Below are positions 6,137 to 49,126 of a stretch of 64,000 nucleotides of DNA, piece by piece. The translations under genes were made by a program, and so were the position numbers. Origin of the DNA: a bacterium (GTDB lineage: Bacteria > UBA8248); NCBI GenBank assembly GCA_030922375.1, contig JAVEPB010000049.1:5074-69073 (forward strand), written 5' to 3'. Under the pieces are notes generated by a model. It was not told the origin of the DNA, made no database searches, and saw only the letters and a list, made by a program, of their open reading frames with translations. Every line of letters begins with the position of its first letter. Positions within the stretch are counted from its first letter, which is position 1.

Positions 6137-6150
6137 CGGGCGATACTCCT

Positions 6151-6245
6151 GTTCTGGTTCAGCGAATCTTTGGGTTGTTTTCACTGCAGGAACGACTTGA
6201 TTTACCGGCGTTTATAATTCTCCCATAGGCCCGACTGAAAATACT
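6151..6245. repeat. Intergenic repeat, B-module copy (GTTCTGGTTCAGCGAATC...TCACTGCAGGAACGACTTGA...)
   Basis: About 80 percent identical by eye over about 95 nt to 34365..34460. Both copies lie immediately upstream of minus-strand start codons. Confidence 0.8.
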
Positions 6246-6305
6246 TTTTAGGGCCATAACTTCCGCTACATAGGCAGGAATGGCGCGCTTCCCGCCATTC
6301 GGAAA

Positions 6306-8360: not shown

Positions 8361-8933
8361 GTGCCTTCTGCCGAAAGGCGTACTGCCCAAATTTACGTTC
8401 GAGAGTTACGCTCCTGTTTGAATGGGGTTTTGTCAGATTTCAAAAGTATTGAAATTTCAGGGGATCCAGTTATTGCGGATCAGGGCAAGCAGTTCCGGTG
8501 CGAGAGTTTCAAGAACTGGTGCGGGCGAAGGGGCATTCAACCTCGGTTCGGCGCCGTGGGGAAAAAGGGGAGCATCTCAGTTTTCGAGCGATTCATCGAA
8601 AGCCTGAAGATCGAGTGCATAGATGAGATTCTGATGCCAAACCGGAAGAGAGGGGTCCGCCTTGAGCTGGTGCTCTTCTCAGATTGGTATAACCGGCACC
8701 GACCGCAATTCGCCCTTCGCGGGCAGACCCCCGGTGAGGTCTATGACGGGATGGAGCCTGCTAATCAGCACTCCCTGTTTGAGCGGAGGGAAAGATGCCC
8801 GGCAGGCGCCTCCCGCGCTTCTCCTCAAATCTCCGTTGCGGGAGAGCACGGCGTCATCATTCGGTTGGAGTTCAGTTATCATTCGGGCAGAAAACACTTC
8901 CCGATTGTTACCTCGAAAAGGGCGGCGTATTAA
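8361..8933 (+). mobile_element. Truncated DDE transposase / integrase-core (rve) remnant, C-terminal part only
   Basis: From about 8480 the ORF reads DQGKQFRCESFKNWCGRRGIQPRFGAVGKKGSISVFERFIESLKIECI...WYNRHRPQFALRGQTPGEVY. This is the rve-domain pattern. No N-terminal HTH or the first catalytic Asp residues are present in any frame upstream. A lower-GC patch follows at 8934..9250. Confidence 0.7.
8401..8479 (+). repeat. Intergenic repeat, A-module copy A (ends GGGATCCAGTTATTGCGGA)
   Basis: Aligns with 35956..36042, 44641..44727, 46018..46104 and 54555..54628. Its last 18 nt (8461..8478) are the exact reverse complement of 36877..36894. Confidence 0.8.
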
Positions 8934-9257
8934 GAAAATCTTCGAAATTTATAGGTTAAAGTTTCGCTGGCCCAGGACAGCGGACTTCACCATGAATATT
9001 ACTTCATCCCCCTTGCCGCATGAAGGTGGATGAAGTTTTGCGGAGTACAGGTTTCAGAACTCTCATACGGAGTGGTATAAATATTGAGGGGAGGTTAGAA
9101 GAGCTAATGTGTACAGCTAATGCATTCAAAGGGGTCAAAATTTCGGAAGGCACAGGTATCTTTATTGGGACAGATCCAGTGGATTTTATCGGAACGTATA
9201 AAGTTACGGTAAGTGAAAGGCGCTGAAAATCTCCCAATTCAACAAGGACAAATCGCA

Positions 9258-30334: not shown

Positions 30335-31532
30335 CGGCTCCCGGCGGTTTTCAACGAGAAGGGCCGGGTTGGATGCTTGGCGCCGGAGGCGTCTTTTTTA
30401 TCACCTGGGTGCGGTGGTTTTTGTCGTGCTCGCGGTGGTCGCCTTCGCCCACCGGTCCGGTTGGGGGGATAGTGAGTCTCAACACATCCACGTGGGTCGC
30501 TTCCCGCACGCTCTCATCCTCACCGACATCAACCGGGACAGGAATCTCGACATTGTCGTGGCCGCTTCGGCCGGAGAGAGCATCACCGTTCTCATGGGTG
30601 ATGGAAAGGGTGGAATTTCACGAGCCGTATCCGAGCGGGTCGGGCTCGGGCCGGGATGGATCGATTCGGGCGATGTGGACGGGGACGGGTCTATCGACAT
30701 CGTGAGTGCGGAAACCGGCGCGGGGAGGATAACGATCCTCTATGGAGACGGTCGGGGTTCTTTTCCCCGCCGCCGGATTCTTGAGGTTCCGGCGGCGGTA
30801 TCGCTCGGTCTCGATGATTTAAACGGCGATGGCCGGATGGATATTGTCGTATCGCAGGCGGTGCCGGGAAAAATTCTGGTGTTTCTCGCCCGCGGGAAGG
30901 GAGAGTTCGGGGAGCCGCGCGAATACCCTCTTTCGAGAGGGCTTCATATTCTCAACCTGGCCGATCTCGACGGGGACGGAAAAAAAGACATCGCCGTCGG
31001 TGGCCTTGGGCAGCAACAGGTGTCCGTCCTTCTCAATCGAGGAAACGGGACGTTTTCCGGGGCGCGTCATTTTAAGCCCGGCCGGCTGCCGCATTACATG
31101 GCTATCGAGGATTTCAACCGGGATGGACGGGTCGACATAGCCGTTGTCCTGGGGGGAGACGATTCGGTCCGGCTTCTCATGGGTGACGATGACAAGGGGT
31201 TCGTTCTCGGGGCCAGCGTCAAGGCGGGCACGAACCCGCACGGGATCGCGGTGGGCGATTTCAACGGGGACGGCTACTCAGACTTGGCGGTGGGGAGCCG
31301 TACGTCGATGGACGTTTGGGTGTATTTTGGGAGCCGCTCGGGCGAATTTCGGGCAGGCGGTAAATTTCGGGTTCCTGACGACGTTATCGCCCTCCGGGCG
31401 GGGGACATGAATAAGGACGGGAAGGCCGATCTCGTCCTCGCCTTCGCGAGTCTCCACCGGGTGGGAATCTATCTCGGCGATGGCGAAGGAAGATTTTCGC
31501 CTCGGGAGCTTTCCGCGAACAAAGGCAAATAA
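30312..31532 (+). CDS. Membrane-anchored FG-GAP/VCBS-repeat beta-propeller protein
   Basis: N-terminal TM LFYHLGAVVFVVLAVVAFA. Seven repeats of the Dx(N/D)xDGxxD(I/L)(V/A)V type: DINRDRNLDIVV, DVDGDGSIDIV, DLNGDGRMDIVV, DLDGDGKKDIAV, DFNRDGRVDIAV, DFNGDGYSDLAV and DMNKDGKADLVL. Confidence 0.8.
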   Translation: MENPEKNNGSRRFSTRRAGLDAWRRRRLFYHLGAVVFVVLAVVAFAHRSGWGDSESQHIHVGRFPHALILTDINRDRNLDIVVAASAGESITVLMGDGKGGISRAVSERVGLGPGWIDSGDVDGDGSIDIVSAETGAGRITILYGDGRGSFPRRRILEVPAAVSLGLDDLNGDGRMDIVVSQAVPGKILVFLARGKGEFGEPREYPLSRGLHILNLADLDGDGKKDIAVGGLGQQQVSVLLNRGNGTFSGARHFKPGRLPHYMAIEDFNRDGRVDIAVVLGGDDSVRLLMGDDDKGFVLGASVKAGTNPHGIAVGDFNGDGYSDLAVGSRTSMDVWVYFGSRSGEFRAGGKFRVPDDVIALRAGDMNKDGKADLVLAFASLHRVGIYLGDGEGRFSPRELSANKGK

Positions 31533-31645
31533 TCATCCGTAAACGTGTGTTCCCCCTCCCGAAACCTCATGGCAGCTAATTTCGTTCTTTTTTTAGATCG
31601 GTATCCACCTGGTTTCGTCTTCAGAATTGTTATCAGGTCAGCGGT

Positions 31646-31730
31646 GTCCCGGTCCGGCGAATTAATAGGCCTGAATTCCTGTCTTTTTCAGCCGTAATAT
31701 ATTGATTCGAAATAGACTTTGATTCCTCCC
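31646..31730. repeat. Intergenic repeat, B-module copy
   Basis: GTCCCGGTCCGGCGAATTAATAGGCCTGAATTCC...GTAATATATTGATTCGAAATAGACTTTGATTCC aligns with 36896..36985. Confidence 0.65.
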
Positions 31731-31982
31731 AAGTCCGACCACGGAAATTATTGGGAGGTTACGGGAAAGAAAAGGCCCTGGTGCATTCGCTCGGAATGGG
31801 CCGAATCAGTAATTCGCCACCCACGCGGGAGGCGGCCTTCCTCCCGAAGCGGCCGGAAAGACTCAAGACTTTATCGGCGCACCCGATAAAATTTCACCAC
31901 CTACCACCTGCGCGGATGATCCTCGGGCAGCGGCGAGCCGAAGGGCCCCGTCCCCGAGATCTGGTGGACATAGGCGATCTTC

Positions 31983-33107
31983 TCATGGCCGGCGGGCACG
32001 TTTCCGTTCAGGGCCTCGCGGAGCCAATCGATCACCAGCGGATTCAGGTCCAGCCCCCCCCAGCCCCTTCATCCCCCAGACGCGGTGAAATTCGTTCTCC
32101 AGCACCCAGAACTCCTTGGGGCACGCGAGCCCTTCGTAGAAGGCAAAAGCATCCTCCACCGGCGTCAGCGGATCGAACTCCCCCGCCGCCATCAGGACGG
32201 GGCATTTAATCCGGTCCTCGTAGCCCCTCAGCGTCATCTTCATCGCCATCGCATCGAAGGCCTCTTCGTCCGACATGCCTGCCATATACATGAAAATCTG
32301 CTTGAAGCGCGGGGAGGCGATATCGAAGATAAAATTCTTGTCGGCGAAGTTGGCGCTGCCCGCCGCGCAGGCGGCGACTCTCGAATCGTAGGCCGCCGTG
32401 CGGGGCGCCCAGTAGGAGCCCATGCTGATGCCGAAGACGCCGATTTTTTCGGCGTCGATCTCGGGCCGGTTCGCCAGGTGATCGATCACGGCGCTCGCGG
32501 CCCGCTCGTAGTTATCGGCGGTCACCCGGATTTTCCGGATATTCGACATCCCCTGTCCCGGGCCGTCCATGGCGCAGGCGTGCATCCCCCGGCGGAGCAT
32601 GTCGTTTTGAAGGACATAGGGATAAAACTCCTTGGTCTGATCCATCCCCGGTATGTAGAGGACGCAGGGCGCCTTCCGCCTATCGGGGAGCAGATGAAGG
32701 AGAATCTGGATTTCCCCTCCCTCAAAAGGCACCTCGATCCGCTCGACCGGATAATCGGCCAGCGCCATAATCCGGTCGTAGCACCGGATGAGACCGGCGT
32801 GGAGCTTGAGTTTTTGGGGGTGGTCGTCCTCGAAGATGGCGTGCTGGGCGTGGCGGTAGGCTTCGGCCGCCTTGACGTACACCTCAAGGGCCGACTCGGG
32901 GAAGTCCGCCTCCTCGGCGGCGCGGGCGACGGCCTCTTTGTGCGCGGCCTCCTCGCCCTTGAGCTTGCTGATCATCTTATAATTCTTGACGCCCCCGGGC
33001 AGCTCGAACTTATCGTCCTCGAAGTTCTGCACCATGCCGGCCGTCTTGGCCATATAATCGAGGATCCACTGCTGGCCGTCGCGTCGCCGGACCGATTTAT
33101 AAGGCAT
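31983..33107 (-). CDS. Alpha/beta hydrolase with an N-terminal helical extension; the C-terminus appears frameshifted at a G8 run (true end probably 31901)
   Basis: GISMGSY nucleophile elbow. It is a paralog of 33163..34338. After ...FHRVWGMKGLGG the listed frame becomes low-complexity. The +1 frame continues LDLNPLVIDWLREALNG... to TAG 31903..31901. Confidence 0.75.
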   Translation of the reverse strand: MPYKSVRRRDGQQWILDYMAKTAGMVQNFEDDKFELPGGVKNYKMISKLKGEEAAHKEAVARAAEEADFPESALEVYVKAAEAYRHAQHAIFEDDHPQKLKLHAGLIRCYDRIMALADYPVERIEVPFEGGEIQILLHLLPDRRKAPCVLYIPGMDQTKEFYPYVLQNDMLRRGMHACAMDGPGQGMSNIRKIRVTADNYERAASAVIDHLANRPEIDAEKIGVFGISMGSYWAPRTAAYDSRVAACAAGSANFADKNFIFDIASPRFKQIFMYMAGMSDEEAFDAMAMKMTLRGYEDRIKCPVLMAAGEFDPLTPVEDAFAFYEGLACPKEFWVLENEFHRVWGMKGLGGAGPESAGDRLAPRGPERKRARRP

Positions 33108-33162
33108 CGCCTGACCTCCTATTTAAAATTATTTTCTTGGATGAACCGCGTAGGAATATTTT

Positions 33163-34338
33163 TCAGGGCCGAAGTTTTTCCTGTAGCCAATCGAAGATAT
33201 AGGCCGTTCCGATGGCGAGGTTATCCCGCTGGCAGTGCTGGGCTCCGCCCTCGGCGACCGTGAAAATTTTCATCGTCTTGTCTTTTGAGCCCACGGCCCG
33301 GAAGAGGCGGCGGGCGTCCCCGAGGGAAATCTGCTTGTCGTCGGCGCCGTGGGTCAGTAAAAACGGGCAGCGCATCTTCTGCACCACGCCGTCGAGGCGG
33401 AACCCCTCGAGCTTCCCGAGGGCCTCGTCTATCGATTTTGCTCCCGTCACCCATTGGATATGGTGGCCCGGCACGGACAGTTCGGACCGGAACGAGGACT
33501 CGATGCGTTTTTTCCAGGTCGCGTGGTAGTCCCAGATCGCCCCCCAGGCGACGCAGGCCTTGAACCTGCGGTCCATGCTGGCGATGCGCGGGGCGTAGTA
33601 GCCGCCCAGGCTGACGGCCATGACAGCCGTCTTTTTGGCGTTCACGTCGCGGCGGGTCTCGAGATAATCGAGCGCCGCCGAGCCGGCCGCTTCGTAGTCG
33701 TGGCGAAGGGGGGTGTTCCTGAAGCGGATGGCCTCGCCGGTGCCGGGGCCGTCCGAGATGAGGACGCTGATCCCCCGGCGGACGAGATCGAAAATCCCCC
33801 ACATGTAGTGAAGCTCCTTGGTGCCATCGAGGCCGTCAAAGAAAATGACGGCCGGAGGCTTCGTCCGGCTTGTGTTCTCGGCGTGCACCAGATAGGCGGG
33901 GAGTTTTTTCTTTCCCTCGAAGGGATACTCGACCCGCTCGATTCGGGGCCGGTCGATGAGGCGCGCGAAGCGGGCGAAGCAATCAAGCGCCTTCCGGTAG
34001 GCATCGAGCGCCTTTTTATCCTTGGGTGTCCTGAACCGCTCGCCCATCTGGTAGTAGCAGCAGGCCCGCTGGTAGTGCGAGGCCGCCGAAAGGGCGTGTC
34101 CCCGGCGCTCCTCGCTCCGCCCGAGCGCCCGCACCCGGTCGCCCATCCGCGACCACTCGCGGAACCAGTGCGCATCGTCGCCGAGTTTCCGGGCCAGGCG
34201 GCGGCCCACCTGATCGATCTCGCCGATCTCCGAGCCCCCCCACTTCGCCCACGATATCATCCCGCAAATCGCGGCCGACCAGCGGTAGTCTTCCGGAAAG
34301 TACGTGTACCAGTTGGCGTTGGCCGGGGCTTCGGGCAT
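33163..34338 (-). CDS. Alpha/beta hydrolase with an N-terminal helical extension (paralog)
   Basis: AVSLGGY elbow, ...HGADDKQI..., and C-terminus AYIFDWLQEKL. Length 391 aa. Confidence 0.8.
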   Translation of the reverse strand: MPEAPANANWYTYFPEDYRWSAAICGMISWAKWGGSEIGEIDQVGRRLARKLGDDAHWFREWSRMGDRVRALGRSEERRGHALSAASHYQRACCYYQMGERFRTPKDKKALDAYRKALDCFARFARLIDRPRIERVEYPFEGKKKLPAYLVHAENTSRTKPPAVIFFDGLDGTKELHYMWGIFDLVRRGISVLISDGPGTGEAIRFRNTPLRHDYEAAGSAALDYLETRRDVNAKKTAVMAVSLGGYYAPRIASMDRRFKACVAWGAIWDYHATWKKRIESSFRSELSVPGHHIQWVTGAKSIDEALGKLEGFRLDGVVQKMRCPFLLTHGADDKQISLGDARRLFRAVGSKDKTMKIFTVAEGGAQHCQRDNLAIGTAYIFDWLQEKLRP

Positions 34339-34364
34339 CGTATCGCCTCACACTTAAAGGGGGT

Positions 34365-34460
34365 GTCCTGGTCCGGCGAATCTTTGAGCCGCTTTCACTG
34401 CAGGAACGACTTGAATCACCTTCGGTTATGATACTCTCTTGGGCCCGGCTAAAAAAATCC
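34365..34460. repeat. Intergenic repeat, B-module copy (near-duplicate of 6151..6245)
   Basis: GTCCTGGTCCGGCGAATCTTTGAGCCGCTTTCACTGCAGGAACGACTTGAATCACC.... It begins 27 nt upstream of the hydrolase ATG (minus strand). Confidence 0.8.
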
Positions 34461-34600
34461 CATTGAAGTCATCATTCCCGCTGAATAGTCAGGACAATCG
34501 TGCTTAGCCCTGGTCCAGCGAATTTTTTTATCGGGGCCGTCCGGGCGAAATCTCTTTATTCCTCATTCTCCGTTTTCTATTAATAGGAAATGCCCGTCTG

Positions 34601-35482
34601 TTAGTTGAGCTGCAAATTTACCAGTATGGCGCCGCTCACGGTGAGCAGCGCCCCCGCCGGCACCCGCCAGGTAATGGATTCCACACGCCGCAGGAAAAGA
34701 AGAGCGAAGATGACGGTGATGAGGGGGGAGGTCTGGATAAGCGAAAGCATCCGGTAGACCTCTCCCCTTTGAAGGGCGCTCGCAAAGAAGAACTGTCCGA
34801 CAGATCCGATGATCCCGACCAGAAAAAAGGGTTTCCATGCATTCTTGACGCCTTCGGGAACCTGGTCGCGCAAGAAAATGAAGGTGTAGAGCACCACGAC
34901 GGCGAACGCCGCTACCAAACCGACAAACGTGCCCGCGAGGGTGTCGGGAAACGATGGAAGGGCCTTGCGCCAGAGCACCGCGCCCAGGGCGGCAAACCAA
35001 GCGGCGGCGATGGGCCAGAGGGCGTGGATTCGCCTCCACCGGCCCTCGGTCCTCCCGGATGACAGCAGAGCGATTCCCGTTACTATCAACAGAACGCCCC
35101 CCAGGTGGTACCACTCCGGCCGCTCTCCGAGAAACAGAATGGCCAAGAATGAGGCGAAAAGAGGTGAGCTTCCTTTGATGGGAGCCGCCCGGGCGACGCC
35201 TATCTTCGAGATCCCGAACATGAAGCAAATTGAGAAAAGCCCAGGGTTGAAAACACCGGCCACCGCCAGCCAAAGATAATGTTCTCCCAGAGGCGGAAAG
35301 CGGACACCCGAGAGCAAGATCAGGATGAGGAGAGCCGATACACCCGCGGAGCGCGAGATCGTCGAGCCGACAAAAGGATTGGTGTGCTGAAGCCCGGACC
35401 GCATCGCCATATCCGCACAGGCGAATGAGAACGCGGCGCCCATGGCGAAGAGAAGGGCGGCATCAAATATCAATACGAACAT
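34601..35482 (-). CDS. EamA/DMT-family transporter
   Basis: About 10 TM helices in two EamA-like halves. The start is placed at ATG 35482 (GGAAAGG upstream) because 35495..35509 belongs to a repeat. Confidence 0.8.
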   Translation of the reverse strand: MFVLIFDAALLFAMGAAFSFACADMAMRSGLQHTNPFVGSTISRSAGVSALLILILLSGVRFPPLGEHYLWLAVAGVFNPGLFSICFMFGISKIGVARAAPIKGSSPLFASFLAILFLGERPEWYHLGGVLLIVTGIALLSSGRTEGRWRRIHALWPIAAAWFAALGAVLWRKALPSFPDTLAGTFVGLVAAFAVVVLYTFIFLRDQVPEGVKNAWKPFFLVGIIGSVGQFFFASALQRGEVYRMLSLIQTSPLITVIFALLFLRRVESITWRVPAGALLTVSGAILVNLQLN

Positions 35483-35494
35483 CCTTTCCGGTAT

Positions 35495-35590
35495 GTCCTG
35501 GTCCAGCAATTATTCGGGCCGGGATACCCAAATGAATTGCTTTGAATTTCTTGAGTGTTCAACACTCTAAGGAAATCAGGATTCAGTACC
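35495..35590. repeat. Intergenic repeat, B-module copy
   Basis: GTCCTGGTCCAGCAATTATTCGGGCCGGGATACCC...TTGAATTTCTTGAGTGTTCAAC...AGGATTCAGTACC aligns along its length with 36896..36991. Confidence 0.75.
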
Positions 35591-35955
35591 TTCTCGAAAG
35601 TGTAATGAGATGAAAAAATTACGTCGAAAAATCGCCCAACGTGTTCCGTGAAGAACATTCGCCGCTTGAAAGTAAAAATCCCGCACATGCCAGATAATAT
35701 ATGCGCTATTCCTCCCAAGGGCTTGGGCCCAGGAATCGCCGGGCCAACACACCAGCGCCGGCGCTCAGGTGGCCATCTTCCGCTTGCCCGGCAGAGGGAA
35801 GATGGGGGAAAGAATGATGGCGAAGACCACTGTGCTCCGCAAAATGACACCTTCATATAAAGAGTGCTTTGGCGAGGTCGATTGATCGGGTCTCGTCGTG
35901 GCATGATGTGCGTCTTGCGCATAGCCGAAACATTATATCGCGTCCTGTCGAAAAG

Positions 35956-36042
35956 CACGATCAAGTTTCAAATTTCTGCTCGAATGGAATTGTTGCCGGA
36001 TTTCAGAAGTACGGAACTTCAGGAGATCTATTTATTGCGGAG
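35956..36042 (+). repeat. Intergenic repeat, A-module copy D
   Basis: CACGATCAAGTTTCAAATTTCTGC...GGATTTCAGAAG...CAGGAGATCTATTTATTGCGGAG aligns with copies at 44641 and 46018. Confidence 0.75.
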
Positions 36043-36074
36043 CCCGGATATGCCCGGGCGGAAAGGAAGCCATC

Positions 36075-36821
36075 GTGCAACTGAAGGGTCGGGCGGCAAT
36101 CGTGACCGGCGCCGCGAGCGGTCTCGGGGAGGCGATTACGAGGAGGTTTGCCCGGGAGGGGGCGAAGGTTTTCGCCTGCGATCGGAATGAAGATGGTGTG
36201 AAAAAACTTGCCGCCGCGCTCTCGGCGGAAGGCCTGACAGTCATTCCACATGTGGTGGACGTATCGAAGTCAGGCGAGGTCCGGCGGGCCGCGGAGACCG
36301 CGTTCGAATCGTTCGGCCGGGTTGAAATTTTGATTAACAATGCGGGAATTTCCCCGAAAAAGACCTATCTCGACTACACCGAGGCGGATTGGGACGCCGT
36401 TCTGGACATCAATTTGAAGGGGGAATACCTGTGCGCCCGCGCCGTCTCGGAGCACATGATGAAAAACGGGTACGGACGAATCGTAAATCTCTCTTCTTCG
36501 GCGTGGCGCTCGGGCGGTTTCGCGGGGGGGATCCCCTACACTTCTGCCAAGGCCGGGGTGATCGGTCTGACGCGCTCGTTGGCCAAGACGCTGGGTTCTC
36601 ACGGAATCACCGTCAACGCCATCGCGCCGGGACCGACGACGACGCCGTTGACCGATAACTGGCTTCCGGCAAGGGAATCCGAAATGGTGAAGCAGATTCC
36701 TCTGGGCAGGTTGGGGCTGCCGGAGGATGTCGCGAATGCGGCCCTCTTCCTGGCCTCGGACGAGGCTTCATACATCACTGGTATCTTCCTGGACGTTAAC
36801 GGCGGAATTGCCATGGGGTGA
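36075..36821 (+). CDS. SDR-family oxidoreductase (FabG-like)
   Basis: TGAASGLGEA, NNAG and YTSAKAG (YxxxK). GTG start with GGAAAGGAAG upstream. Confidence 0.9.
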   Translation: MQLKGRAAIVTGAASGLGEAITRRFAREGAKVFACDRNEDGVKKLAAALSAEGLTVIPHVVDVSKSGEVRRAAETAFESFGRVEILINNAGISPKKTYLDYTEADWDAVLDINLKGEYLCARAVSEHMMKNGYGRIVNLSSSAWRSGGFAGGIPYTSAKAGVIGLTRSLAKTLGSHGITVNAIAPGPTTTPLTDNWLPARESEMVKQIPLGRLGLPEDVANAALFLASDEASYITGIFLDVNGGIAMG

Positions 36822-36874
36822 ACCGGGCCCGGGGATCGTTGGCGTTGGATGGGGCGTGAGTTGATGTGGAGATG

Positions 36875-36991
36875 CTCCGCAATAACTGGATCCCTGTCCG
36901 GGTCCGGCGATTTTTCGGGCCGGGTTTCCCGGATGTAATGCCTTGAATTTCTTGAGTATTCGACTTTCCCGGGGATTCAGGATTCATTGCC
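36875..36991. repeat. Composite intergenic repeat (inverted A-terminus plus B module)
   Basis: CTCCGCAATAACTGGATCCC (reverse complement of the A-module end) is joined to GTCCGGGTCCGGCGATTTTTCGGGCCGGGTTTCCCGGATGTAATGCCTTGAATTTCTTGAG... Confidence 0.8.
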
Positions 36992-37015
36992 CCACTACTG
37001 GAGCGGACGAAGGGC

Positions 37016-38434
37016 TTAATTTTTCTTTAGCGTTAGCTGCAAGAGCGTGTCGGCGCGATCTTGTCCGTCGAGGTCGCGGCAGGTCTCGATGATCGCTTCG
37101 AACTGCTCCGCCGGTATCGGGATGCCCGGTATGATATCGCGGATACGGCGCGCCTCCTCGTCAAAATTCCACATGAACTCGCGTCCGGTGGATTGCTTCG
37201 TGTAGCTTTTGCCGTCCTTGGTGTGGATCGTTATCCGCGGGCCGAAGAGCGTCATTCGGTGGGACGGGATGATCGTCACCCGCTTCATGAGCTCCAGCAC
37301 CTCGGGCGGGTCGTCCAGGCCGTCCGGGACGGCCGACACACCCGGGACGGCTCCCATGCTTCGCAGCACGGGGAAGCCGCGTTTCACGGCGCCGTACGCC
37401 GTGTAGTAAGAGGTTCCGCCCACCCTGGTTTCCCCATCTTCTCGCCGGCTCGGGAAAGCGGGGCTGGGATACTGTGTTTCGAGCCAGTTCACCACGGCTT
37501 CGATGCGGTCCACGTCTTGATGATTGATGTCGTTCTCTTCGCAGAGCTTCGCCGTCACATCTACGTGCGCGATGTTGTAGCCAGCGGTCGAGTAGATGCG
37601 GTAGAGCGTCTCGAGGAACATCCACCTCCTGCCCAAATCGGCGGTGATTTTGTCCAGGCTGGCCAGGGTGTCTCCGGTAAAGCTGTAGGTAAGCTGACCC
37701 ATGTTGTTGCCTGCGTAGGCGTGATAGAAACCCGCGTCGCCTTCGAGGAGGGTTTCGCCGCCGATGTGCCCCTCTCTTGCCAGTGAGACCGCGAGCATGG
37801 CGTTGCGCACAGCGGCGCCCTCACGCAGGGAGTGGCCGCCGCTCCGGGGCCCTTCGAGGTTGCCCCCGGCCAGATTCACGCAGAGCGCGATCGCGGCGTT
37901 CACCTGGTCCTCGTTGAAGCGCATGATCTTCGCGGCGGCGATTGCGGAGCCGAAAATGCCGAACACCGGACTGGCGTGGAAGCCGCGCGCCATCACCGTC
38001 GGGATGAAGTCGGCCGCCATCCGCTCCATGACCTCGTAGCCCGCAGCGAGACCTGTGATGAAGTCCTTTCCCGAGACGCACGCTGTTTCCGCGGCGACGA
38101 AGGCGCCCGGGAGGATGCACGTACCGGGATGCGTGAGCATGCGGAAGGTATCCCACTTTCCGCCGGCCTGCATCAATTCCGCGTTCGCATAGGCGGCCCC
38201 GCCCTTTGTCACCTTGGCGCCGTCCACCATGATGGTAGCGCCGTTTTGTACGCCGGTTTCTTCTTCGGCGATTATCTTCATGGCCTGTTGACCGCCCGGT
38301 GACTGAGAGCCAAGGAGTGCGGACGCGAGGTTCTGGAGGGTGACCCCCTTGGCGCGATCGACCACCTCGGGGGGCAGATCTTCATAACCCAGGCCAACCA
38401 CCCAATGCGCTAGCTGCCGACTGAGAGATGTCAT
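37016..38434 (-). CDS. MmgE/PrpD-family protein (2-methylcitrate-dehydratase fold)
   Basis: 472 aa. N-terminus LAHWVVGLGYEDLPPEVVDRAKGVTLQNLASAL, with family-typical length and layout. Confidence 0.9.
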   Translation of the reverse strand: MTSLSRQLAHWVVGLGYEDLPPEVVDRAKGVTLQNLASALLGSQSPGGQQAMKIIAEEETGVQNGATIMVDGAKVTKGGAAYANAELMQAGGKWDTFRMLTHPGTCILPGAFVAAETACVSGKDFITGLAAGYEVMERMAADFIPTVMARGFHASPVFGIFGSAIAAAKIMRFNEDQVNAAIALCVNLAGGNLEGPRSGGHSLREGAAVRNAMLAVSLAREGHIGGETLLEGDAGFYHAYAGNNMGQLTYSFTGDTLASLDKITADLGRRWMFLETLYRIYSTAGYNIAHVDVTAKLCEENDINHQDVDRIEAVVNWLETQYPSPAFPSRREDGETRVGGTSYYTAYGAVKRGFPVLRSMGAVPGVSAVPDGLDDPPEVLELMKRVTIIPSHRMTLFGPRITIHTKDGKSYTKQSTGREFMWNFDEEARRIRDIIPGIPIPAEQFEAIIETCRDLDGQDRADTLLQLTLKKN

Positions 38435-42012: not shown

Positions 42013-42278
42013 ACGGCCGGCGAGGGTCGGGCCGGGCAGGTTGTTGTGCTCCGCAAAAAATGGATTCTCTCAATAATGAAAATCTTACGGAGGTCCTGGA
42101 ACTCGCCTGGTTAGCTTTTTGAAGTGGATTTGCTACTATTTTGCTACCCATTCATCGGCGAAAGTGATTTCGGCGCTTGCCGGTTTGTGAGGCCGGGGCT
42201 ATCCGCTGGCCGTCCGGGCGCACCGGGTGCCATGTATCCCCGTGGAAGGGGTATCCGGGCGCTCGGCGAGTATCGAAC

Positions 42279-43661: not shown

Positions 43662-43773
43662 AGATAGAGGGGTATTTCCGTAATGTCGGGTGAGAAGAGT
43701 ACCCCTGTTTCGCCAGCAGGATACTGAGAATCCCCCCCCGCCATTTTCTGGTGCGGCATAACTCGAGGTTCGG

Positions 43774-44601
43774 ATGTCCTCCATCGAGGAGCGTATTCCC
43801 GCGATCCAGTGGGTCGAAAGAGAGAACCGCCGGTTTATCACCATCTTGCGCAACCTGGACGAGGGGGGGTGGCGTTGTCCGAGCTATTGCCCTGTCTGGT
43901 CAGCGGCGGATGTCGTTGCCCATATGACACTCGGGGCCCGGTTTTACGCGCACGTGATACCGGCGGGGAGGGAGGGGCGGTTCGAGATGCCCTTTGGGGC
44001 GAAGGATTTGAAGAGCTTCTGGGCCTACAGGGATCGGGTGGGCGCCGCGCTTGCTTCCCTGCCCGGTGGCGAGCGGGTAGACCGTTTCGAGGAGGCGATC
44101 TGGAATCTTCAGGGGGTGTTCGAAGCGATCCGCCCCGAAGATATGGAAAAGGAAGCCTGGCACTGGATGTGCCCGTGCCCGGTGCACTCCTACCCCGGAC
44201 AGCGGCTCTATGAACTAATTCTCCACGATTGGGACATCCGGAACGATCCGGAGGGCGAACTCCATCCCGATGCGCTGGGTGCGGCGGTCGATATCCTCGA
44301 CTTCCGGCTGCCCTTTTTCTTCAACCGTGCCCCGGACCCGGGGCTGACGGGGTCCTTTCGGTTCGAGACGGCTGGCCCCGCCCGAAGCTGGGCGATGCGG
44401 GCCGAGGCGGGGAGCGCGCGGCCGGTTTCTCCCGAGGAAGGGCCGTTCGACGCGGAGATATTCGCATCCGCCAGCGATATTGTCCTGCTGACGACCGGCC
44501 GGGCCGATTTGGCTGCGAAAAAAGCGGGTGGCCGCCTCCGGACCGAAGGAGACTCCGGGTTGGCCGGCGCCCTGCTCGGGACTCTTTGCCGGCCTTTTTG
44601 A
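43774..44601 (+). CDS. DinB-like / maleylpyruvate-isomerase N-terminal domain protein
   Basis: CPSYCPVWSAADVVAHMTLG matches the metal-binding His helix pattern of that superfamily. Length 275 aa. Confidence 0.6.
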   Translation: MSSIEERIPAIQWVERENRRFITILRNLDEGGWRCPSYCPVWSAADVVAHMTLGARFYAHVIPAGREGRFEMPFGAKDLKSFWAYRDRVGAALASLPGGERVDRFEEAIWNLQGVFEAIRPEDMEKEAWHWMCPCPVHSYPGQRLYELILHDWDIRNDPEGELHPDALGAAVDILDFRLPFFFNRAPDPGLTGSFRFETAGPARSWAMRAEAGSARPVSPEEGPFDAEIFASASDIVLLTTGRADLAAKKAGGRLRTEGDSGLAGALLGTLCRPF

Positions 44602-44640
44602 GCCTGCCACTGAAACCGGGCTGCCCGCCCTGTCCTGATG

Positions 44641-44727
44641 CACGATCGAGTTATCAATTTCTTTTGGACATGATTTTTATCGGATTTCAAAACATTGAAA
44701 TATTTTGGGGATCTCATTATTGCGGAG
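44641..44727 (+). repeat. Intergenic repeat, A-module copy B
   Basis: CACGATCGAGTTATCAATTTC...CGGATTTCAAAACATTGAAATATTTTGGGGATCTCATTATTGCGGAG. Confidence 0.8.
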
Positions 44728-44930
44728 GACAGGAAAGACGCCCTCGGGTTGGGTTTTTTAAAGGAGGAGGTGTCTCGCATGAAGTTTTCCGCTAGACTTG
44801 GGGGGGTTCAACACGGGAAACATAGCCAGATTTGTGAATGCTCGGTGCGGAATCAGGGTACGGGCCTCGATTGCCGCGTAATTCCGGATTGTGATTTGTT
44901 CGGATACCAGGACAGGACGGGAGTTCGACA

Positions 44931-45869
44931 ATGACAAACGCGGAACGGTACCGCCACCTGGCCGCCTGTGTGGTTCCTTTCACGGAGAGCGGTGATATCG
45001 ATCGGGAAGGCCTCGAAGCCCAGGTCGCCGAATTGGCCGAGACCGGTCTCATGAACGGATTTGTCGTGAACGCCCACGCCGGCGAGGGGGACAGCCTCAC
45101 CTACGAAGAGCGAATGCAGGTCGTTGAAATCGTTGCCCGGACCGCCAAGCCGCACGACCTCCTCACCGTCGCGGGAATTTCTCCATACCCGGACACGACC
45201 GATGGCGCCATCCGCGTATCCCGCGACTCGCTGGAGCGCGGGGCGGACGCTTCCTTGATGATGGCTCCCTGCTGGTTCTCGTGGGGGATCGACGGGCCGC
45301 TCGTGCGGAGGTTCTGCGAGGAGGTTCTGGAGGCCGTGGATCTTCCCATGCTCTTTTTCGTGATGGGCGCTTATTCGGGAGTGAATTACACGACCGATGT
45401 CGTTCGCGAGATCTGCCGGGTGCCGGGCGTGGTGGGCGTGAAGGATACGACCTGGGCCACCGCCAGCTTCGAGAACAATCTTCACGGCATCCGGGAGCTG
45501 GATCGGGACGTGGCCGTCCTGACGGGAAACGACACCCTTCTTTTCTACAACTTCCTGGCCGGCGCGGACGGCACCCTTCTCATATTCCACACCCTTTGCC
45601 CCGATCTCATCGTGGGGATGTTCAATGCGGTGAAAGAGGGGGATATATCCGCCGCAAAGGCGCTCCACGAAAAAGTGGACTGTCTGGCCCGCGTCCTTTT
45701 CGAGCCGCCCATGATCAACATGGTGCCGAGGATGAAGGCCGCCCTTTATCTGTCCGGAAAGCTTCCTTCGATGGCGGTGCGGGCCCCCCTGCAGGTTCCC
45801 GGCGAGGAAACTTTGGGGCGCATCCGGAAGGCGCTTGAATTCGCCGAGATCGAGATCAAGAACACCTGA
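44931..45869 (+). CDS. Dihydrodipicolinate synthase / N-acetylneuraminate lyase family (class I aldolase)
   Basis: VVPFTESGDIDREGLEAQVAEL...GFVVNAHAGEGDSLTYEER and VVGVKDT (the Schiff-base Lys region). Confidence 0.85.
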   Translation: MTNAERYRHLAACVVPFTESGDIDREGLEAQVAELAETGLMNGFVVNAHAGEGDSLTYEERMQVVEIVARTAKPHDLLTVAGISPYPDTTDGAIRVSRDSLERGADASLMMAPCWFSWGIDGPLVRRFCEEVLEAVDLPMLFFVMGAYSGVNYTTDVVREICRVPGVVGVKDTTWATASFENNLHGIRELDRDVAVLTGNDTLLFYNFLAGADGTLLIFHTLCPDLIVGMFNAVKEGDISAAKALHEKVDCLARVLFEPPMINMVPRMKAALYLSGKLPSMAVRAPLQVPGEETLGRIRKALEFAEIEIKNT

Positions 45870-45890
45870 CCGCCCGCGCGGTATACAGGG

Positions 45891-45927
45891 TATGCACGGC
45901 GAGTTACTGGTTCGCCATGCACAGGTT
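45891..45927. repeat. PAL family copy P2 (37-nt palindromic element)
   Basis: TATGCACGGCGAGTTACTGGTTCGCCATGCACAGGTT. The arms TGCACGGCGA and TCGCCATGCA pair with one mismatch. It starts 22 nt after the stop codon. Confidence 0.7.
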
Positions 45928-46017
45928 AAGAAGTAGCCCTGGTGGAGACATGCCAAGGCTGAATCCCGGCAATGGTCATCATCAAAACGATATTTCCAGC
46001 TCCCTCCTGTTCAAATA

Positions 46018-46104
46018 CACAATCGAGTCCTGAATTTCCGCTTGAACGGGATTTTTGTCGGATTTTAAAAGCGCTGGATTTTCAGGGGATCCGATTTTTG
46101 CAGG
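46018..46104 (+). repeat. Intergenic repeat, A-module copy C
   Basis: CACAATCGAGTCCTGAATTTCCGC...CGGATTTTAAAAGCGCTGGATTTTCAGGGGATCCGATTTTTGCAGG. Confidence 0.8.
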
Positions 46105-46209
46105 GCGCAATGGAGCAATTAAAGGGAGTGATATAATTTCGGAACCCTCAAATAAGATCGAACTCAACTTGACGATTCTGGCTTGGCAGTTCCAGAAGGA
46201 GAAAAAGCG

Positions 46210-47121
46210 ATGGCAAGAAATAAAACCATAGGGGTAATTGGGCTGGGAAAGATGGGCAAACCCATCGCGGAAGAGTTGATTGAAGCAAAAACGCCTCTTA
46301 TGGTGTGGGACACATCCCCGTCAGCCCGGAAGCCTTTCGAGAACATGAAAGGTGCTGAGGTGGCTGAACCCGGCACGATGGCGGGAAAGTGCGCGGTTAT
46401 TATTTTCGTCGTCCCCTCCTCGCTGGAAGTGGCGGATTGCCTGAAGGGAAAGGAGGGAATCCTGCAAAACGCGGGCAAGGGGCTGGTCCTCTATGATTTC
46501 ACCACATCAGATCCCGTTGATACGAAAAAGTTGGGCCGTCTGGCCGAGAAAAGGGGGATAGCTTACCTCGATGCCGGGATGGGCCGGGGCTCCACCAGGA
46601 AGCTCGTCCTCATGATAGGAGGAGATCAAAAAGCATTCCGGCGTACGAAAAAACTTCTCGCCCCCATCGTGGAAAAAACCTTCCATCTTGGGGAGCTCGG
46701 TTCCGGTCACGCGATGAAGCTTGTTCACAACATGGTTCTCCACACTATCTTCGTGTCCACCTGCGAAGGTGCTCGGATGATTGAGCGGATGGGGATGAGG
46801 GTGGAGGACATGATCGAAATTTTTAATGCTTCCGTCGTCTATAGCTATGTAAGCCGTCACCGCTTCCCGAATAACATTCTTTCAGGGAAGTGGAACGCCA
46901 ATTCTCGCGTTTTCAATCTCCATAAAGATGTAGGCCTGGCCGTCAAACTGGGCAAAAAGCTTGGGGCGGAGGTCTCGCTGGCGGAAAGAACTTTTTCTTT
47001 TTTAGGGAAAGCCATCAAGCGAGGGATGCAAGAGCAGGATTTTTCATTGCTCTATAGGGACTTTGAGAAGATCAGGAGGGTGCGGCCGGCCTCCCCCTCG
47101 AAACCGGTCCATTCGGATTAA
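46210..47121 (+). CDS. NAD(P)-dependent 3-hydroxyisobutyrate/6-phosphogluconate dehydrogenase-like oxidoreductase
   Basis: ATG 46210 (AGGAG upstream). IGVIGLGKMGKPIA Rossmann motif and GSGHAMKLVHN. Confidence 0.85.
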   Translation: MARNKTIGVIGLGKMGKPIAEELIEAKTPLMVWDTSPSARKPFENMKGAEVAEPGTMAGKCAVIIFVVPSSLEVADCLKGKEGILQNAGKGLVLYDFTTSDPVDTKKLGRLAEKRGIAYLDAGMGRGSTRKLVLMIGGDQKAFRRTKKLLAPIVEKTFHLGELGSGHAMKLVHNMVLHTIFVSTCEGARMIERMGMRVEDMIEIFNASVVYSYVSRHRFPNNILSGKWNANSRVFNLHKDVGLAVKLGKKLGAEVSLAERTFSFLGKAIKRGMQEQDFSLLYRDFEKIRRVRPASPSKPVHSD

Positions 47122-47703: not shown

Positions 47704-47993
47704 GACACCCCCGAGCGGGTTTCCGATATTAAGGGATGGATGTCTTTTTCATCCTGATCAGCCTTTTGTTCGGCCCTCCTGCACAGATGTCCCGAAAATG
47801 ATGTCCAGAGAAAAGTCAGCGAGTTCGATCCGCGCCCTGACTCCGATGTTTTTCTCCATCAGAGAGAGGGAGGCCATCATGACGGAACACCTATACCGCC
47901 CGGGGGGCTGTGAATCCGCGCGGAGAATTTGATGCCACGGTGCGAGTCTCAGCGACCTGGGCAGATTTCTCAACACTCCTGGAGGGGACGACC

Positions 47994-48968
47994 GTGACTA
48001 GTCTGATGGAACGGATGGAGATCGCAAGCCTCTGCGTGGATACCTGTCTGGGGATCCAGGAAGGAGAGAAGGTGCTCGTCCTCGCCGACAGGGAGCACCT
48101 CGAATATGGCGAAGCCTTGAACGCCGCGGCGAACCTCCTGGGGGCGGAAACCGCGATCACCGTTCTCCCCGATCCCAAAAATTACGAAATGGAGCCCAGC
48201 GGGATGGTGGTCGCGGCCATGAACGCGGCGGACGTCCTGATCGTCGTCTTGTCGGAACTGGCCCAAAACCAGTTCGCGCATTCAATCGCGCGAAAAGAGG
48301 CCACGGAAAAAGGCGTCCGGTACGGTGGCTACAGGATCCTTCCTCCCGGCTCGCGCCTCACCCGCGAAGATCTGCTGGAAACAGGAGAGCGTGTACTCCG
48401 GCTGATAGACCGGCTGACGTCCGCGGATTCCGCGCGCCTCACGACCGCACTGGGGACCGAAGTCACCATGTCCCTGAAAGGGAGAAAAGGGTTCGGCGTC
48501 TCACCCATCTGCACCAAATGGGAACCGGGCCGCTGGGCCGGCCTGCCGAATTTCGCCGACGCGCACATCGCACCCGTGGAAGGCACCGGCGAGGGCGTGG
48601 CGATCATCGACGGGATGGTGAACTGGATCGGCTTCGTGCGCGAGCCCCTTAGGATAACGATCGAAAAAGGCAGAATAACCGATGTCTCCGGGGGCGCCGA
48701 CGCTGAGCGGCTGCGCGCCATTCTGGATCAGGGGGATGAAAACGCTACGAATTTCGCGGAGCTGGGCATGGGCACCGTCGCCAACGCGCTGCCCGTGGGC
48801 TCGAACCTGGACAAGCGCCTTCTCGGCACCGCTCACATCGGACTCGGGGACAACTCCGTCCTCACCGGGAAAGTCCGGAGCAACATGCACATGGACGCCC
48901 TGATGTACGGGGCGACGGTGGAACTGGACGGCGAGCCCATCGTGAAGGAAGGGAAATTCCTGGCGTGA
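47994..48968 (+). CDS. Aminopeptidase-T (M29)-fold protein, paralog of 59787..60761
   Basis: ORF 47910..48968. I chose the GTG 47994 start (GGAGGGGA upstream), with ATG 48006 as the alternative. EGEKVLVLADRE, NFAELGMGT, GTAHIGLGDN and HMDALM. Confidence 0.7.
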   Translation: MTSLMERMEIASLCVDTCLGIQEGEKVLVLADREHLEYGEALNAAANLLGAETAITVLPDPKNYEMEPSGMVVAAMNAADVLIVVLSELAQNQFAHSIARKEATEKGVRYGGYRILPPGSRLTREDLLETGERVLRLIDRLTSADSARLTTALGTEVTMSLKGRKGFGVSPICTKWEPGRWAGLPNFADAHIAPVEGTGEGVAIIDGMVNWIGFVREPLRITIEKGRITDVSGGADAERLRAILDQGDENATNFAELGMGTVANALPVGSNLDKRLLGTAHIGLGDNSVLTGKVRSNMHMDALMYGATVELDGEPIVKEGKFLA

Positions 48969-49126
48969 TCGAAGGATGCCGCAGTGCTCCGAAAAAATTG
49001 GGTCACTTGGGAATCCAATTATAGCGGTGCACGGTTCGGCTGATTAAAGATGGGAATCCCCCTGTCAGCGGGATTGGTTCGAACCCAAGAGGCGGAGGGC
49101 GAGGCGAAATTCAAAGGAGATGGCAG

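Follow-up and report, generated by a model that had tools for sequence, protein, structure and literature searches.

The window, i.e., the whole stretch of 64,000 nucleotides that was analyzed, belongs to contig C49 of the metagenome-assembled genome G000 and holds at 36075..36821 an intact gene for a FabG-like short-chain dehydrogenase (SDR) of 248 residues, which matches Pfam adh_short_C2 over its full length (1e-67), possesses the motifs TGxxxGxG, NNAG and YxxxK and yields a dN/dS of 0.08-0.18 against the related genome G004. The 12-mer TTATTGCGGAGC is found at 36032-36043 on the plus strand, 31 nt 5' of the GTG start of this gene (36075), and its exact reverse complement at 36874-36885, 52 nt 3' of the stop (36821), whereby the inverted match around both words reaches 19 nt at 89% identity. 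A first-pass annotation had described this pair with its positions and spacings and had further reported the 18-mer at 36877-36894 to be the exact reverse complement of 8461-8478, and both descriptions were confirmed by the sequence; the similar words which it listed at 42048, 48985 (48986 in our numbering) and 35834 turned out to be genuine members of the 12-mer family. As both tips face inward to the gene, the bracketed stretch has to be considered as passenger DNA between elements and not as an element itself. Positions 34469-37157 of the window were recovered at 100% identity in a separate Logan assembly of SRR25584962, and since this assembly matches base for base, the bracket arrangement is not a binning or assembly artefact. 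The features surrounding the gene are given below, whereby IS-A and IS-B are names introduced in this work for two insertion-sequence families and G002 is, like G004, a related genome.

34364..34464, plus strand: D module, an IS-B-type solo end at a distance of 26 nt to the ATG of a hydrolase gene on the minus strand, with a paralogue at 6150-6250.
35494..35600, plus strand: second B module, an IS-B-type solo end; about 10 nt separate its tip from the start codon of EamA, a gene on the minus strand.
35830..35931, plus strand: L half of the A MITE, aligning to the left end of the IS-A copy on contig C142, with the degenerate left terminus CTGTGCTCCGCAAAATGACACC from 35830 (nhmmer, C49 40903-41004, E=1.7e-23).
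35941..36047, plus strand: R half of the A MITE, ending in ...GATCTATTTATTGCGGAGCCCGG, with its tip toward the SDR start and containing the 12-mer (nhmmer, C49 41014-41120, E=1.8e-23).
36049..36872, plus strand: apparently captured operon fragment of 824 nt, comprising the 27-nt SDR1-SDR2 spacer with RBS, the whole of SDR2, the SDR2-cyclase spacer and the first few cyclase codons.
36075..36821, plus strand: the SDR gene (SDR2 of this operon order).
36872..36894, minus strand: solo A-type terminus TGCTCCGCAATAACTGGATCCC, the stump of a second element, with its tip toward the SDR stop and an AATAA signature.
36886..36907, plus strand: predicted terminator-like hairpin with T-run (consensus scan only), spanning the junction of A terminus and IS-B tip 3' of the SDR gene.
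36895..37001, plus strand: B module, an IS-B solo end with the terminus TGTCCGGGTCCGGCGATT, kept next to PrpD in G002 at 93%.
8379..8481, plus strand: solo R copy with a terminus that matches the 18-mer 36877-36894 in reverse complement and a tip that forms, within about 3 nt, the left junction of a 23.3-kb block missing in G002.
8480..8979, plus strand: truncated IS-B comprising the 3' portion of a gene for an rve transposase (59% amino acid identity to the C142 copy) and an IS-B terminus at 8962-8979, adjoining the R tip of 8379-8481.

With one mismatch allowed, the 12-mer possesses five matches in the window where 0.28 are expected, a count which was reached by none of 100 shuffles, and in the genome (4.07 Mb in 272 contigs) 36 occurrences of the 20-nt terminus were counted at up to four mismatches (about 3 expected by our own arithmetic). 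These words were identified as the terminal inverted repeats of an insertion-sequence family of the rve/DDE type, IS-A, which measures about 1.2 kb and possesses the ends TGTGCTCCGCAAAAATTGGATCC…GCACA. One complete IS-A copy with an intact transposase gene is present in G000 next to several partial copies at contig ends; the complete copy, located on C142, spans 1,199 bp between the inverted termini TGTGCTCCGCAAAAATTGGATCC / GGATGGAGTTTTTGCGTAGCACA and holds one ORF with HTH_32, rve and rve_3 domains. Relatives of its transposase with 69-80% protein identity were found in Nitrospinota MAGs, and among the curated NCBIfam models the protein scores 94.4 bits with IS481 NF033577 (cut-off 224) and 90.6 bits with IS3 NF033516 (cut-off 160); the group to which it belongs is very large and carries generic public names, i.e., 'integrase core domain-containing protein' and 'transposase InsO family protein'. 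The MAG chromosome OZ245330.1 contains at least six IS-A copies of 1,197 bp with 99.7-99.8% identity and an identical left terminus (23 nt), and judged by these near-identical copies IS-A is demonstrably active elsewhere. No target-site duplication was detected beside five of these near-identical parent copies or beside the C142 copy, so the family appears to make none; since the parent element makes no visible duplications, these are useless as a test at the SDR locus, which disposes of the check for target-site duplications that the first-pass annotation had proposed. Its proposal to define the repeat family and the copy number led further: two rounds of profile search in G000 revealed, next to four full MITEs, 26 matches to the L half and 19 to the R half, with dozens more in G001-G004.

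Next to the autonomous element, the IS-A family thus comprises three non-autonomous forms, namely a 218-nt MITE composed of an L half and an R half, solo L copies and solo R copies. Both 12-mer termini had been assigned to longer repeat units before, and this assignment stands; the extent given for the upstream unit does not, as this unit is a bigger, complete element of 218 nt (35830-36047) without a transposase ORF, the other full copies measuring 204-225 nt. Its left terminus CTGTGCTCCGCAAAA..., located at 35831, holds the word previously seen at 35834, and its right terminus is ...TTATTGCGGAGC. For some MITE halves the identity between G000 and G004 amounts to 90-96%, as compared to 82% for rpoB, and because this identity exceeds the rpoB baseline, it indicates that copies moved recently between lineages. 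Comparison of filled and empty sites yielded no clean empty site for the MITE copies on contigs C148 and C216, as the C216 copy is orthologous in G002 and the flanks of the C148 copy are located on separate G001 contigs.

The bracket itself is asymmetrical: the MITE upstream of the SDR gene is complete, both of its termini being present, and the element downstream is a stump of 21-23 nt, truncated by a different IS end. The AATAA signature of the stump is commoner in R-type ends, and among the copies the stump is closest to that at 8461-8481, its 18-mer being identical to the R copy at 8461-8478. It runs straight into an IS-B-type tip at 36895, an abutment of A tip and IS-B tip which was seen again on contig C170. 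IS-B was defined on C142, where it measures 1,634 bp and possesses perfect 20-nt terminal inverted repeats TGTCCTGGTCCAGCGAATTT which face each other and enclose an rve transposase gene; against the curated family models the encoded transposase behaves like that of IS-A, i.e., the cut-off is not reached. The B modules (36895-37001 and 35494-35600, the former being 77% identical to 35494-35590) and the D pair (6150 and 34364) all start with TGTCCTGGTCCAGCGAAT, and since to the left of TGTCC each copy continues into unrelated sequence, these modules are best described as element termini, i.e., IS-B solo ends. The IS-B terminus is present in about 11 real copies, of which eight are located on C49. 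Nested and truncated IS copies litter the island.

The orientation of these ends relative to the neighboring genes raises the question of their function. Among 18 intergenic R copies, 15 are followed in the same orientation by a gene whose start lies 15-731 nt past the tip (binomial P = 0.004), the genes 3' of the R tips all being accessory catabolic enzymes of diverse kinds, and three IS-B-type solo ends (6150, 34364 and 35494) lie 10-26 nt from start codons with their tip toward the gene. This bias suggests that R ends may act as outward promoters or that selection may act on their orientation, and it offers a testable lead for IS-end promoters of accessory catabolic genes. Alternatively, the A and R modules may be understood as mainly regulatory, i.e., as a shared promoter or operator placed before catabolic genes, whereby the bracket around the SDR gene would reflect common regulation instead of mobility. 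Such a function is compatible with an IS origin, as the R end could have been domesticated as a promoter that reads outward, and outward promoters of IS ends are well documented (review PMC9330008). Against it stands that no sigma-70-type promoter scores in 35700-37100, that neither the complete window nor the surroundings of the C148 copy yielded an Rfam match and that no conserved RNA fold was detected in 13 aligned R copies, the consensus energy being 0 on both strands as for column shuffles. Moreover, L-type tips do not possess a significant orientation bias (15 versus 9, P = 0.31), and a homology of 110 nt which ends in an IS terminus points to common descent from a mobile element and not to a convergent operator. 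A mainly regulatory nature of the modules is hence possible, if unlikely. A sigma-54 promoter reading of the termini was considered as well and rejected, as by our reading the GG-GC spacing is one base too wide in both the A and the B/D motifs.

What lies between the element tips was identified by comparison with related genomes. The orthologue of the SDR gene in G004 (same genus, 90% nucleotide identity) and in G009 (other genus, 74%) is the middle gene of an SDR1-SDR2-cyclase operon with the order HMGL-like, SDR1, SDR2 and cyclase, followed in G004 by a BKACE-like gene, and the metagenome contigs L079 and L081 likewise carry it between SDR1 and the cyclase. Alignment to the G004 operon (90% nucleotide identity) revealed that homology starts at TGCCCGGGCGGAAAGGA and stops at GTGGA just before TGCTCCGC; in coordinates, it begins at 36049-36051, 0-3 nt past the right tip of the MITE, and reaches to about 36870, where the tip of the stump is located, so the borders of the passenger are flush with the inner ends of the elements. 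G000 itself keeps a remainder of this operon on contig C164, where HMGL (90% amino acid identity to G004), SDR1 (87%) and BKACE (82%) are present without SDR2 and the cyclase. The same loss was found in G002, in which 97 nt separate the SDR1-side from the BKACE-side homology block. At neither operon gap, i.e., that on C164 of G000 and that of G002, was a remnant of an A element detectable, alignment scores equalling those of shuffled controls, and under a foreign origin of the SDR fragment this site is not the donor. As G000 is a MAG with 7.5% estimated contamination, the assignment of C164 and C49 to one organism is based on G002 having both at similar identity.

Divergence from G004 was used to distinguish between a foreign and a native origin of the fragment. 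For the SDR gene of the window, dS between G000 and G004 is 0.31, as compared to 0.88 for rpoB and 1.3-1.6 for HMGL, SDR1 and BKACE on C164; for calibration, rpoB dS amounts to 0.11 between G000 and G002 and to 0.26 between G000 and G001. Since the dS of the SDR gene is far below that of rpoB and of its former operon neighbors, the fragment was presumably acquired horizontally from a lineage close to G004. By this measure, the SDR gene is not native at this locus and is best described as a horizontally acquired fragment. Further genes of the island are comparably similar to their G004 counterparts, namely the DHDPS-like gene at 44931-45869 (dS 0.19) and the gene at 43774-44601 (0.33), both of which are found in G004 and G003 in ordinary contexts without A or IS-B modules. 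The alternative to be weighed at this point is a relocation of the SDR gene within the genome, out of G000's own C164 operon and without any horizontal transfer. This idea draws on the fact that SDR2 and the cyclase are missing from the operon site in G000 as well as in G002, and that the left break on C164 lies right after the SDR1 stop, within about 3 nt of the fragment start relative to G004. However, vertical descent followed by relocation would predict a dS like that of the former neighbors, with which the value of the SDR gene does not match, and the excess similarity to G004 extends to the island neighbors named above. A move within the genome is thus regarded as quite improbable.

Comparison with the closest relatives revealed how the locus has changed. 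G002 is collinear with C49 at 93-95% identity and lacks two blocks of the window, one of 23.3 kb (8480-31779) and one of 4.8 kb (about 32058-36892); the latter comprises, at 32058..36892, a hydrolase gene, the D module, the EamA gene, the B module, the A MITE, the SDR gene and the stump. The 23.3-kb block has its junction no more than about 3 nt from the R tip at 8479, and the right junction of the 4.8-kb block lies 0-4 nt from the IS-B tip at 36895. The left junction of the 4.8-kb block is located in a C-run inside a hydrolase gene, which is continuous in G000, and because this junction cuts a gene that is uninterrupted in G000, G002 was reasoned to possess the deleted form. The 4.8-kb deletion could be the outcome of ordinary microhomology-mediated illegitimate recombination at the C-run instead of transposase action. 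In G001 and G003, unrelated sequence follows 3' of PrpD. The variation in gene content between related genomes for which the first-pass annotation had asked is hence present, both as the absence of the block in G002 and as the operon location of the SDR gene in G004 and G009.

Based on these findings, a history of the locus may be suggested in which IS-A-end repeats surround an SDR fragment that was gained from a G004-like lineage after the operon of G000 had lost its own SDR2, and in which the borders of the fragment were made by transposon ends; we consider this history to be probable. It assumes that initially the own operon of G000 lost SDR2, before the foreign SDR fragment arrived. Next, an 824-nt fragment of an SDR1-SDR2-cyclase operon would have been gained horizontally from a lineage near G004, whereby both joints of the fragment would have been made by transposase action at IS-A-type ends, a suggestion which derives from the coincidence of both borders with IS-A-type tips within 0-3 nt. 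Two routes may be envisaged for this step: (i) in the donor operon, SDR2 became flanked by two inserted elements, one on each side, and then moved with them as a composite unit or (ii) the acquired segment was larger at first and was shortened at both of its ends by deletions next to element tips, for which the deletions seen in G002 are a likely precedent at the same locus. Both routes fit the evidence and a choice between them would be a matter of inference, because of the downstream element a stump is left, no target duplication is present and the unit has no second context. Finally, the downstream element would have been cut to a stump of 21-23 nt by an IS-B end.

Taken further, this history would allow for the island as a whole to have been built gene by gene by IS-A and IS-B ends, with single genes cut from the operons of relatives and joined behind R or IS-B ends serving as portable outward promoters. 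This idea derives from the single-gene blocks of low dS to G004, the R bias of 15 in 18 and the location of tips 10-30 nt from gene starts; it is put forward tentatively and, as a general account of the island, is doubtful. If true, it would describe a transposon-end counterpart of the integron cassette array in an uncultured marine lineage.

A further reading, according to which the bracket is a functional composite transposon formed by a MITE pair and still moves the SDR gene as a cassette, likewise deserves consideration, as the passenger borders are flush with inward tips as in composite transposons, as an intact IS-A transposase gene is present in the genome and as MITE-bounded composites have been documented elsewhere (PMC3934969, PMC4133298 and PMC13367494). 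Against a unit of this kind stand the downstream element, which is reduced to 21-23 nt and lacks an outer terminus, and the upstream MITE, whose termini are degenerate with 4 mismatches in 20. Furthermore, JGI metagenomes and related genomes did not reveal the same bracketed unit in any other genomic context, the close SDR2 copies elsewhere being located in the operon context and free of elements. A composite that still functions is thus very improbable; mobility of the bracketed unit in its present form is very unlikely, and the structure is now a fossil. Of the cassette-like or MITE-pair arrangement proposed in the first-pass annotation, the part that remains is that transposable-element termini, namely a MITE and a solo end, surround a displaced single gene; the symmetry of the pair does not. 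That the repeats are REP/REPIN palindromes mobilized by a RAYT, as their intergenic, dispersed, short and inverted nature may imply, or are chance matches, is hardly conceivable, since the words coincide exactly with the termini of rve-type IS elements, a search for a Y1/RAYT gene (PF01797) gave no match in G000 although the control search was positive in 6 of 14 reference genomes, and chance is excluded by the shuffles; the search for a RAYT-type or other transposase, which had been recommended beforehand, accordingly ended with an rve/DDE transposase (IS481/IS3-like).

When compared with known systems, an integron gene cassette offers an analogy only, as the repeat 3' of the SDR gene was recognized as an IS terminus and no conserved fold is visible in the alignment of R copies. 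IS-A resembles the IS481/IS3 superfamily in possessing a single DDE transposase with N-terminal HTH and rve core, a length of about 1.2 kb and TGT...ACA termini, the latter being the pattern known for IS481 from ISfinder descriptions; it differs in that its scores are far below the NCBIfam cut-offs and in that five fresh copies are devoid of a target-site duplication. Promoter-bearing MITEs are known in bacteria, the Correia elements of Neisseria being an example, and the R ends share with such MITEs and with promoter-bearing IS ends a tip that is strongly biased toward the start of the next gene, whereas the R promoter itself is only putative. Erosion of islands by IS-end-adjacent deletion is likewise recognizable in the synteny breaks between G000 and G002 at element tips and in the nested, truncated IS copies, with the difference that the G002 deletions are explicable by transposase or by microhomology. 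The closest counterparts are MITE-bounded composites, of which a 439-bp MITE pair around a blaPER-1 integron of Acinetobacter johnsonii (PMC3934969) and the TIME-COMPs (PMC4133298 and PMC13367494) are examples. Different from these, the second element at the SDR locus is a terminal stump, leaving the pair incomplete, the parent is an rve-type IS and not Tn3, no target duplication flanks the unit, the passenger is one catabolic gene from an operon instead of a resistance region, and any movement as a unit is putative. Shared features are short non-autonomous elements with the termini of an autonomous transposon on both sides of the passenger, passenger borders flush with the element ends and a passenger which is native elsewhere in a different context. 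The locus is thus interpreted as transposon ends around a displaced gene. Gene shuffling of this transposon-driven kind is known from elsewhere, and current understanding is not overturned. Two uncurated rve-type IS groups and their miniature derivatives were defined in the course of this work, which account for several 'leader' and 'repeat' features in the window. Essentially, the SDR locus provides a base-resolution view on how one gene out of the operon of one species may come to reside in an accessory island of a second species, each of the two cuts being marked by a transposon tip, and such events have rarely been documented in uncultured marine bacteria.

In the island, neighbouring genes at 43754-47077 of the window were identified as homology blocks of one gene each between genomes of the same genus, and copies of R, the right half of the 218-nt MITE of the rve-type insertion sequence IS-A, locate to the gaps between such blocks:

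43754-44604, single-gene block, 87% in the relative G004
44626-44733, R copy, in a gap between single-gene blocks
44891-45879, single-gene block, 94% in G004
46005-46108, R copy, in a gap between single-gene blocks
46197-47077, single-gene block, 80% in the relative G003

For the island genes within this stretch, dS to G004 was found to be far under the rpoB baseline. Further along, at 48986-49030, two A-type termini, i.e., IS-A ends, stand back to back, 45 nt in total and beginning 18 nt past the stop of gene 47910-48968, which looks like a minimal element made of termini alone. A unit of ~120 nt at 31645-31770 starts with a terminus (TGTCCCGGTCCGGCGAAT) of the type of IS-B, the second rve-type IS, and closes with a degenerate A/R-type terminus (AAATTATTGGGAGGTTACGGG), and the left edge of the R modules (CGTCCTGTCCAAATA) is similar to the IS-B tip; MITEs of a hybrid or imperfect-TIR kind are possible. 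The 4.8-kb block absent from the sister genome G002 has its left junction exactly at a C-run in a hydrolase gene (32054-32061).

Elsewhere in the source genome, an 83-nt stretch on contig C148 (L002 4169-4251) lies immediately past an R tip, ahead of a gene start. G004 carries this stretch at two sites and the relative G001 has it too, each time with 98% identity, which is far above the genome baseline. A tRNA was ruled out for this stretch, and no Rfam match was obtained for it.

On contig C164 (~30680-31750, locus L028), an rsgA-like GTPase gene lies between SDR1 and BKACE, occupying the position of the absent SDR2 and cyclase genes. It is AT-rich (35% GC versus 60% for the genome), and G002 possesses the same SDR1-BKACE gap without it; either the gene is a foreign insertion or the contig is chimeric.

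In L054 and the other near-identical IS-A copies of the MAG chromosome OZ245330.1, the long ORF (322 aa) begins later than in the source-genome copy, even though tblastn matched all 331 query residues, and a frameshift or an altered N-terminal arrangement may be conserved across these copies.

A high-copy IS starting TGACGTGCCCCCCTCACGTCGGTCCATGCTGAATGAG, also noted at L013 6725-6836, was found at ~25 source-genome contig ends (e.g., C2, C95, C210, C70, C66 and C143) and is probably the chief source of assembly fragmentation; it carries an IS3-like OrfA start (MSRKRHTPEQIIGKLREAE).
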